A stretch of 32,000 bases of DNA from Nitrososphaerota archaeon (lineage in GTDB: Archaea > Thermoproteota > Nitrososphaeria_A > Caldarchaeales > Calditenuaceae), in contig JAVYLC010000005.1 in the NCBI GenBank assembly GCA_038741355.1, positions 1-32,000 of the forward strand, in the 5' to 3' direction. Positions within the stretch are counted from its first letter, which is position 1, and each line of letters starts with the position of its first letter. The notes under the pieces are model-generated. The model was given only the letters and a program-made list of their open reading frames with translations. It ran no database searches and had not been told where the DNA came from. Positions 18,257 through 21,437 of this stretch are shown here, piece after piece. Position numbers and translations under genes: made by a program.

Positions 18257-18283
18257 TTTGCCCCAGTATCATGTAACTACCTG

Positions 18284-18293
18284 CCTATAAACC
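18284..18293 (-). promoter_or_regulatory. TATA-like box for the JAMM/coiled-coil operon
   Basis: The minus strand reads GGTTTATAGG about 32 nt upstream of the ATG at 18256. This spacing implies a leaderless or near-leaderless transcript. Confidence 0.4.
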
Positions 18294-18505
18294 CCTTACC
18301 TACATACCGCCCCGCTACGGGGGGATCAAAGATCTCTCACAACACTTGTAGTGCCTTCTCCCTTTACGAGTGTGGTAGACTTTGCCCGCCCCAAATTGTC
18401 CCATCATACTTTAAAAATCACCCAGGCGCAGTCCGAGGCCGTACCATATTATCGGGAGCGCGTATTTGTTACGTATGTGTGCACGCGATTCTCAGTACAG
18501 TTAAT

Positions 18506-18515
18506 CTATTTATAG
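18506..18515 (+). promoter_or_regulatory. TATA-like box for the Ub-E2-E1 operon
   Basis: CTATTTATAG lies about 40 nt upstream of the Ub ATG at 18552. Confidence 0.4.
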
Positions 18516-18551
18516 CCCATCCAATAAACTGGATTAGGCGATGCGGGAAAT

Positions 18552-18788
18552 ATGAAGATTAGAATAGTCCCTGCGGTTGGTGGTGGCCCGCCAATCGAAC
18601 TAGATGTCCCGCCCAATGCAAGTATAGGTGCCGTGAAGATGCGGGTTTGCGCCATAAAGAAGTTGAGGCCGGAGGATGCGAGGCTCACGTTTAAGGGAAG
18701 GGCGCTGAGCGACTCTGAGACAATCTCTTCAGCAGGAGTGACTGAGGGAGATAAACTGGTCTTGATTACTAGGACAGTTGGTGGGTAG
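18552..18788 (+). CDS. Ubiquitin-like beta-grasp modifier ending in Gly-Gly
   Basis: 78 aa. The C-terminus LVLITRTVGG is followed directly by TAG (checked: ggt ggg tag at 18780-18788). TFKGRAL resembles ubiquitin IFAGKQL, and LVLITR..GG resembles LHLVLRLRGG. Confidence 0.85.
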   Translation: MKIRIVPAVGGGPPIELDVPPNASIGAVKMRVCAIKKLRPEDARLTFKGRALSDSETISSAGVTEGDKLVLITRTVGG

Positions 18789-19294: not shown

Positions 19295-20457
19295 CTGGTA
19301 TGGAGAGGTACGACCGTCAACTCCGCATAGAGGGTTGGGACCAGAACATTCTACTATACTCGACCGTATTTATTGCTGGCGTCGGAGCAATAGGTGGTGA
19401 GGTGGCGAAGAACCTCGCGATGATGGGCGTAGGCAAGTTGATACTCGCAGACTATGACTATGTTGAGCTAAGCAACCTGAGTCGACAACTCCTATTCCGG
19501 GACTCAGACATAGGTAAAGGGAAGGCGAGAGTTGCAGCTGAGAGGCTACGCGAGATTAACCCCCACGTAGCAGTCGAGGCCTACGGTCAAGATATCCGGG
19601 AGCTAGGAGAGGAGGTGCTAGGCAATGTGGACATAATCTTCTCATGCCTGGATAACTGGGCGTCCAGGAGGTGGTTGAACTCAGTTGCTGTCAGCCTTGA
19701 CAAACCCTTAGTCGACGGCGCCATGAACGGATTTTATGGAAATGTTCAGGTGGTTTTTCCACGAAAAACTGCGTGCCTAGAGTGCCAGAGCATTAACCTC
19801 ATACCTAGAGAGGAGAAGCTGGCAGAGTGCACACTTAAGAGGAGGAAGCCTGAACACCTCGTCAACGATCTGAAGGAGCATGGAATCATAATTTGTCTTG
19901 AGGAGGCTGAGAAGCTCTTCCAACTCAATATAAAGACGATCTACGATATAAAATACACGAAGCTAGACATGGTAGCGGAGTTGGCTGATGACCAGACACT
20001 AAAGCTGATAGAAGAACTAAGGTCGCGGCTAATGCCACCTATGCCTGCTATCCAGTCTGTAGCCTCAGTAATTGCAGGAATCATGACAACTATCGGCATA
20101 CAAATACTCCATCAAGGGCGTCTCGGAAAGCCGCTGACAGGCCTCATCGTTTATGACGCCCTCAACTCTCGCCTATCCCGTATCAAGATCTCCCGAGACC
20201 CGCACTGCATAGTATGCAATGAAAACTATTCTATGCCCCTCGAGCTTTCCTTCGACTTGAGTGAGACAGTCCTGAAGCTTAAAGAAACATTGGCCTCGGT
20301 CTTCGGATTCCCAGACCCCGAAGTGTTATATGCTGGGAAGAGACTGGACGATGAGGATGTCCTTGCCAAGGTTGGTGTGAGGGACAGGGATGTAATCTAC
20401 ATCTCTACGACGCGGCTTTTTGAGCCCCTAGCAATCAGGATAGTCTCCTCAGCCTAA
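19291..20457 (+). CDS. E1-like (ThiF/MoeB/Uba-type) adenylating enzyme with C-terminal beta-grasp-like domain
   Basis: RYDRQLRIEGW, nucleotide loop GVGAIGGEVAKNL, LSNLSRQLLF, and two CxxC pairs (CLEC at aa 162-165, CIVC at aa 306-309). There is an insert of about 85 aa between them, with Cys180 and Cys202. The ATG overlaps the E2 stop (ATGA at 19291-19294). Confidence 0.85.
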   Translation: MTGMERYDRQLRIEGWDQNILLYSTVFIAGVGAIGGEVAKNLAMMGVGKLILADYDYVELSNLSRQLLFRDSDIGKGKARVAAERLREINPHVAVEAYGQDIRELGEEVLGNVDIIFSCLDNWASRRWLNSVAVSLDKPLVDGAMNGFYGNVQVVFPRKTACLECQSINLIPREEKLAECTLKRRKPEHLVNDLKEHGIIICLEEAEKLFQLNIKTIYDIKYTKLDMVAELADDQTLKLIEELRSRLMPPMPAIQSVASVIAGIMTTIGIQILHQGRLGKPLTGLIVYDALNSRLSRIKISRDPHCIVCNENYSMPLELSFDLSETVLKLKETLASVFGFPDPEVLYAGKRLDDEDVLAKVGVRDRDVIYISTTRLFEPLAIRIVSSA

Positions 20458-20477: not shown

Positions 20478-21437
20478 CTATTCCTTCTCTGAAAGTATCC
20501 GCACCACCTGGGACTCATCAATGTTTCCGCCGGTCAACATCAGTACAACTTTCTTACCAGCTAGGCTGTCTCTCATCTTGTATGCTGCGGCGGTGGCCGC
20601 TGCGCCTGCGTGCTCGGCTATCTGTCTGACGTGGTGGTAGAGCTTTCTTATAGCCCTCTCCATCTCACCATCTGAGACAAGCACGACATCATCTATTCGG
20701 CCATAGAGTAGTGAGAAGGGGACCTCGTACGCCTTAGCCACGGCAAGACCCTCAGCCCTAGTCTCCACCCTATTCCTCGAGACTATCCTGCCCTGTTTCA
20801 GAGATTCGTAGAAGGCCGGTGCACCCTCGGCCTGAACGCCTATCACCCTTATCGAAGGGTCGACCGTCTTATAGACTATGCAAGCACCTATTGCACCAGA
20901 GCCGCCGCCTATCGGATTGAAAACCACGTCTACGCCTGGCAGCTCCCTCAGCACCTCTAGGTGCATGGTCGCCACACCCGGGTAGAGCAGCGACTCGTTT
21001 ATTGCGTGGATGTATTGATAGCCCTTCTCCCTCGCTAGCGCCTCCGCATGAAGTGCCGCCTCGTCGAAGAAGTTGCCATACGTTATAACGTGGGCGCCGA
21101 GCTGTTGGAGTGCCTCCTTCTTCACATCCGACACCCAGCTGGGCATCACAACATGCACGTCAACTCCGAATAGGCTTCCGGCATACGCGATTGACTGGGC
21201 ATGATTCCCCATAGACGCTGTGATTACTCCCGTTTTCCTCACCTCCTCAAACATCTTATACATATAGTAGATTCCACCCCTGACTTTGAAGGAGTGGGTA
21301 GGGTTCAGGTTCTCCAGCTTCACCCACACATCGCATCCCAGCTCCCTCGAGAGACCCCTAGAGCGGACAAGCGGGGTGGGCCTAAGATACCTCTCCAATA
21401 TCTGTGAAGCCTCAATAACGCTCTTCAGCGTAATCAT
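20478..21437 (-). CDS. PLP-dependent threonine/serine ammonia-lyase (short form, no ACT domain)
   Basis: PLP-lysine motif NPTHSFKVRGG and glycine loop PIGGGSGAIG. 319 aa, Trp-synthase-beta superfamily. Confidence 0.75.
   Translation of the reverse strand: MITLKSVIEASQILERYLRPTPLVRSRGLSRELGCDVWVKLENLNPTHSFKVRGGIYYMYKMFEEVRKTGVITASMGNHAQSIAYAGSLFGVDVHVVMPSWVSDVKKEALQQLGAHVITYGNFFDEAALHAEALAREKGYQYIHAINESLLYPGVATMHLEVLRELPGVDVVFNPIGGGSGAIGACIVYKTVDPSIRVIGVQAEGAPAFYESLKQGRIVSRNRVETRAEGLAVAKAYEVPFSLLYGRIDDVVLVSDGEMERAIRKLYHHVRQIAEHAGAAATAAAYKMRDSLAGKKVVLMLTGGNIDESQVVRILSEKE

Follow-up and report, generated by a model that had tools for sequence, protein, structure and literature searches.

A Calditenuaceae orthologue of Caldiarchaeum subterraneum ubiquitin that is encoded in its mature form

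The Caldiarchaeum system serves as the reference model for the origin of eukaryotic ubiquitylation. Its modifier, the Caldiarchaeum subterraneum ubiquitin CsUb (Csub_C1474; PDB 6FJ7, 2MQJ, 5ZEW and 6FNN), works in a system with an E2, an E1, the srfp RING E3 and the metalloprotease CsRpn11 (PMC3082918, PMC5654768, PMC6043591). The cascade has been rebuilt in vitro, from E1 activation and E2 transfer to RING-dependent substrate modification and Rpn11 cleavage (PMC5654768, PMC6043591). With the C. subterraneum proteins, ATP-dependent isopeptide conjugation to lysines was obtained in vitro on a heterologous substrate (PMC5654768). CsUb carries nine residues after its GG motif, which Rpn11 must remove before E1 acts, and a stop-codon-truncated version (Ubq-GG) is activated by E1 without Rpn11 (PMC5654768). 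CsRpn11 cleaves both the precursor and conjugates (PMC6043591). The pro-peptide of CsUb has been interpreted as a eukaryote-like feature (PMC3082918), and a genomics paper discussing the pathway assumes a pro-ubiquitin (PMC6053391). The SAMPs, ThiS and MoaD are commonly encoded ending directly in GG and need no processing (PMC3082918).

We analysed a stretch of 32,000 nucleotides of an archaeal genome (positions 1 to 32,000 of contig JAVYLC010000005.1, assembly GCA_038741355.1), which as a whole is called the window. The host is a hot-spring archaeon of the Calditenuaceae, which belong to the order Caldarchaeales, formerly 'Aigarchaeota'. The features of the ubiquitin locus in the window are compiled in Table 1. 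The ubiquitin ORF comprises 78 codons, starts with ATG and ends ggt ggg tag, and the C-terminus of its product, LVLITRTVGG, is followed directly by the TAG codon. The Pfam ubiquitin family PF00240 matches this protein with 45.9 bits (cut-off 25.4), and phmmer connects it to 6FJ7 with an E-value of 1.5e-32. Its AF2 model shows a beta-grasp fold (pLDDT 90.2) and was aligned to CsUb (6FJ7) by VIA-align over 78 of 78 residues with a Z-score of 15.2 and 69% identity. Orthologues with the same neighbours were found in 65 species-level genomes. Because of the Pfam score, the identity to CsUb, the confident model and these orthologues, the ORF is a real gene and not a chance ORF. Judged by its sequence, it is the intact Calditenuaceae orthologue of CsUb. 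The Caldiarchaeum-type ubiquitin system being known, the window gene is a further orthologue that refines it and does not represent a new system. The ORF that covers the gene on the opposite strand is in all likelihood a shadow ORF of the coding strand.

Table 1. Features of the ubiquitin locus in the window, with position, strand and the support for each assignment.
Feature	Position	Strand	Support or remark
Coiled-coil protein, 266 aa	16864-17664	-	Directly after JAMM gene; no true family match
Rpn11-like JAMM metalloprotease, 203 aa	17645-18256	- (divergent)	JAB, 59.6 bits
Divergent intergenic region, JAMM versus ubiquitin operons	18257-18551		Sequence
Antisense ORF, 135 aa	18506-18913	-	Overlaps entire ubiquitin gene; without support
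Ubiquitin, 78 aa, mature form	18552-18788	+	PF00240 match, identity to CsUb, AF2 model
UBC-fold E2, 167 aa	18791-19294	+	UQ_con, 95.1 bits
E1-like activating enzyme, 388 aa	19291-20457	+	ThiF, 206.4 bits; ubiquitin, 30.1 bits at aa 318-371
PLP-dependent enzyme	20478-21437	Other strand, just downstream of operon	Pfam search

As in C. subterraneum, ubiquitin, E2 and E1 form an operon that faces an Rpn11-like gene, and the same order occurs in ten loci of the window's clade (L006-L015) and in the Caldarchaeum loci. In the intergenic region a TTTATA box (18509-18514), about 40 nt before the ubiquitin ATG, is a putative promoter element. The E2 gene begins with TTG only 2 nt past the ubiquitin stop and encodes a UBE2D-like protein with HPN at residue 82 and a single Cys at residue 94, its ICESIL segment aligning to ICLDIL. 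The E1 combines a ThiF adenylation domain with a C-terminal ubiquitin-fold domain; it contains GVGAIG at residue 30, CxxC pairs at 162/165 and 306/309, and Cys180 and Cys202 in an insert. The JAMM protein matches CsRpn11 (6FJU) with 174.8 bits over residues 1-169, and its JAMM motif HSHPSLGLFLSPID at residue 83 is intact, with Glu24 upstream. A homologue of the coiled-coil protein adjoins the JAMM gene, at about -1.6 kb, in L006-L015, L018 and the Caldarchaeum loci. L071 (JBGVSY010000035, from the same MAG as L036) holds a second, divergent copy of ubiquitin; this copy shows 59% identity, ends in TRTGGAALLR and has Arg at position 68, and E2, E1 and JAMM genes are all absent within 5 kb of it.

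Compared with CsUb, the window protein shares the mature length of 78 aa, the VPAVGGG loop insert, T46 in place of I44, R50, K48, K68 and the TRTVGG tail; the segments V6-G12 and T73-G78 do not vary, either in alignment A1 or among the 65 orthologues. It differs in lacking the nine-residue pro-peptide and in the replacement of CsUb K4 by Arg and K53 by Ser, by which two of the three self-modification sites are gone. Furthermore, no RING gene stands beside the operon, whereas two RING-H2 genes lie on other contigs. With eukaryotic ubiquitin the protein shares the beta-grasp fold, 28-33% identity, the R-x-x-GG tail, in which R74 is the Arg72 equivalent, and the partnership with a UBC E2 and with an E1 that contains a ubiquitin-fold domain. 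Unlike eukaryotic ubiquitin, however, it is made neither as a fusion nor as a precursor, it has no Lys at the positions of K48 (Arg50), K6 (Ala8) and K63 (Glu65), and it possesses Thr46 for I44 and a first loop that is longer by two residues. The SAMPs (SAMP1/2 of Haloferax volcanii), ThiS and MoaD are likewise small beta-grasp proteins activated by ThiF-type E1s, but the SAMP systems work without E2 and RING E3 and are members of the ThiS/MoaD family, whereas the window protein matches the ubiquitin family only.

This likeness to the small GG-ending proteins raises the alternative that the window protein is only a sulfur carrier, forming a thiocarboxylate like ThiS, MoaD or Urm1, and no protein modifier. 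GG-ending ubiquitin-like proteins and ThiF-type E1s indeed descend from sulfur-transfer systems, and the gene just downstream of the operon encodes a PLP-dependent enzyme. However, the ubiquitin-family match is accompanied by no ThiS match at E <= 0.01, and the gene is co-operonic with the only UBC E2 gene of the genome, an enzyme which has no sulfur-transfer role. The genome furthermore holds four separate ThiS-family proteins, one of them next to a second ThiF-type E1, and the 69%-identical homologue forms isopeptide conjugates. With respect to these points we regard a pure sulfur-carrier function as very improbable and treat the protein as a modifier.

The initial annotation had proposed that the GG-stop end makes C-terminal processing before activation dispensable. 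The end ggt ggg tag is seen directly, and Ubq-GG is activated without Rpn11 (PMC5654768); as the window gene is the natural version of this stop construct, the proposal is sound. Likewise, the suggested resemblance of LVLITRTVGG to LHLVLRLRGG was borne out by a column-for-column alignment, in which Arg74 of the window protein takes the position of human Arg72. Among the 65 orthologues 34 end directly with GG-stop and 31 carry 1-20 extra residues, which vary widely in sequence and length between clades. Consequently, the pro-peptide characterises the reference CsUb and is no defining trait of the family. On a tree of 55 concatenated E2 and E1 proteins the two states require at least five changes, four of which are forced by well-supported branches. 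The pro-peptide, which about half of the species possess and which was gained or lost at least five times, is evolutionarily labile, and the mature form is supported but ordinary, being a common, recurrent variant. Within the literature searched, no account of the mature ubiquitin form in Calditenuaceae was found.

In principle a gene that otherwise encodes a pro-peptide could have acquired the stop recently through a nonsense mutation, or the assembly could be in error here, given that the characterised reference has nine extra residues and that extensions come and go among close relatives. The latter is illustrated by L042, where a 13-residue extension sits inside the otherwise GG-stop Wolframiiraptor clade and looks like a recent stop loss. 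Yet in the window's clade, the Calditenuaceae, GG-stop was found in all 16 operons on the tree, which stem from independent assemblies and metagenomes and form a clade with 100% support. The stop is therefore not an assembly accident, and since the same end recurs in more than half of the orthologues, an artefact is hardly worth considering; the gene is taken as genuinely mature. Read-through or recoding of the TAG was rejected as well, because the product would carry an unrelated 35-residue tail that overlaps the E2 gene out of frame. The pro-peptides of the relatives (L024-L070) are short, clade-variable and often contain Cys, for example CGGGGLC, SDCAC, FNCVCGAP and VGKPICRTS; at least one Cys occurs in about 12 of the 31 extensions and also in the reference CGEPIRRAA. 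In L038 (Terraquivivens) the extension reaches 20 residues, and the E1 gene is displaced downstream by about 2 kb from its usual place.

If no pro-peptide has to be removed, the adjacent JAMM enzyme should act in deconjugation, as had also been proposed from the sequence. Indirect support for this proposal comes from two sides: CsRpn11 cleaves conjugates, and GG-stop genomes retain an Rpn11-like gene (PMC6043591 for the former). The gene is adjacent in 24 of the 31 GG-stop loci with enough upstream sequence. In the Calditenuis subclade (7 loci, all GG-stop) the JAMM gene is unlinked, and an Rpn11-like gene was detected elsewhere in each of the five Calditenuis genomes tested, with 45-49% identity and E-values of 1e-38 to 1e-42. 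Maturation cannot explain the retention of the gene where ubiquitin has no pro-peptide. As the Rpn11-like enzyme is kept with or without a pro-peptide, its retention suggests that the conserved function of archaeal Rpn11 is deconjugation and not maturation. A coupling between loss of the pro-peptide and unlinking of the JAMM gene was considered and rejected, the gene being unlinked in Calditenuis as well as in the extension-bearing loci L031, L058 and L060. A PF00240 scan of the genome for a second ubiquitin with a pro-peptide, which could serve as a JAMM substrate, returned the ubiquitin, the E1 tail and one weak ORF, and none with a pro-peptide. This weak ORF (L005:1459-1698, + strand, contig C11) encodes 79 aa, ends in EVMGG-stop and scores 15.8 bits in the genome scan and 16.7 bits in hmmscan, both below the cut-off. 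Its product is possibly a further modifier encoded with a finished GG end, and the ORF is distinct from the four ThiS-family genes.

With respect to the lysines, which occupy residues 2, 29, 36, 37, 48 and 68, the initial annotation had placed Lys48 in TFKGRAL, which the sequence confirms, and had tentatively equated it with ubiquitin K48, which does not hold. Already in the proposed pairing of TFKGRAL with IFAGKQL, read column by column, Lys48 stands opposite Ala46 and Arg50 opposite Lys48. Structure-based alignment with human ubiquitin and CsUb led to the same result. Against human ubiquitin the model reached a Z-score of about 14 with an rmsd of 1.2-1.6 Å over 74-76 aligned residues, model residues 1-78 corresponding to ubiquitin 1-76 with 76 of 78 residues covered and two unaligned. 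As the structural aligner gives ranges, the residue equivalence rests on the ungapped HMMER alignment of residues 12-78 to ubiquitin 10-76, on the secondary-structure register and on the published CsUb structure. In the model the helix comprises residues 25-36 and two of the strands residues 43-47 and 68-73, that is, the elements of ubiquitin shifted by +2. The CsUb crystal structure shows a two-residue insert in the first loop (PMC6043591), and I44 of ubiquitin has been equated with T46 (PMC5654768). This insert shifts the numbering by two; therefore Lys48 of the window protein is the counterpart of human Ala46, and Arg50 stands where human ubiquitin has Lys48. The likeness of Lys48 to ubiquitin K48 is a coincidence of numbering. 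In the C-terminal ubiquitin-fold domain of the E1 (window 20242-20403, residues 318-371) we observed LYAGKRL, a true 'FAGKQL'-type motif with Lys where the free ubiquitin has Arg50.

One could still argue that Lys48 is functionally equivalent to its eukaryotic namesake and that the modifier builds K48-type chains. Its position falls within the beta3-beta4 turn that also holds human Lys48, at a distance of two residues, and every one of the 18 loci of the window's clade has Lys there. In the same 18 loci (L006-L023) position 53 is S, N, G or A, whereas it is K in all 47 other orthologues. CsUb K53 has been described as close to human K48 (PMC5654768), so that in a clade which has lost it a nearby lysine could in principle substitute. 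Against such chains speaks, besides the alignment to Ala46, that Arg50 is invariant in 65 of 65 orthologues, whereas 37 have K at position 48 and 28 have R. This pattern suggests selection for charge and not for an acceptor amine. Mass spectrometry of CsUb, moreover, identified K4, K53 and K68 as in vitro self-modification sites, whereas K48 was 'unmodified but conserved' (PMC5654768), although little weight can be put on this negative result, as the tryptic peptide would be short when modified. On balance K48-type chains appear improbable, and a clade-specific acceptor role of Lys48 is unlikely.

Of the three CsUb sites the window protein, which has R4 and S53, keeps only K68. Together with R50 and R74 (65 of 65 each), K68 is invariant among the orthologues (65 of 65) and is the single lysine for which this holds. 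Being both the only family-invariant lysine and the only retained self-modification site, K68 would be the best candidate acceptor if the modifier forms chains. Residue numbers are misleading across the +2 offset: the sole universally conserved lysine, K68, is no K48 counterpart. To the reference model the comparison adds that the pro-peptide is labile and Rpn11 retained, that no lysine other than K68 is universal, and that the loss of K53 is specific to one clade.

Considering all of this, we hold it very probable that the window gene encodes a CsUb orthologue that is made directly active and whose K48 is not the eukaryotic-K48 counterpart, with the JAMM enzyme presumably working on conjugates and K68 as the likeliest acceptor should chains be formed. 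Sequence, fold, orthology, gene context and distribution were established on the locus and its relatives, and the biochemical steps are transferred from the 69%-identical C. subterraneum homologue. By this analogy the free Gly78 carboxylate would be adenylated and thioesterified by the co-operonic E1, after which the modifier would be passed to Cys94 of the co-operonic E2. A RING-H2 E3 whose gene lies away from the operon would then assist in the isopeptide attachment to substrate lysines. The divergently encoded Rpn11-like JAMM, for which this genome offers no pro-peptide substrate, should act only on conjugates.

A search within 5 kb of the operon revealed a RING gene in none of the 18 loci of the window's clade. 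The RING-H2 proteins of the genome, one of 84 aa (contig C8) and one of 250 aa that is apparently membrane-anchored (contig C26), match zf-RING_2 with 34.9 and 34.3 bits, respectively, and are candidate E3s unlinked from the operon, an assignment that is a guess. It is conceivable, though rather doubtful, that the Calditenuaceae ubiquitin system was simplified as a package, comprising a modifier made in active form, the loss of K4 (to R) and K53 and the unlinking of the RING E3. If so, mono-ubiquitylation or a single type of chain, K68-linked or clade-specifically K48-linked, would be left, and the system would offer a natural 'minimal ubiquitin code' for comparison with Caldiarchaeum. As to the surroundings of the two RING-H2 genes, the one for the 84-aa protein (L002:226-1683) is flanked by two coiled-coil genes of 282 and 123 aa. 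In the 250-aa protein (L001:895-1647) the RING-H2 domain is located at the end, and the N-terminal part looks membrane-spanning.
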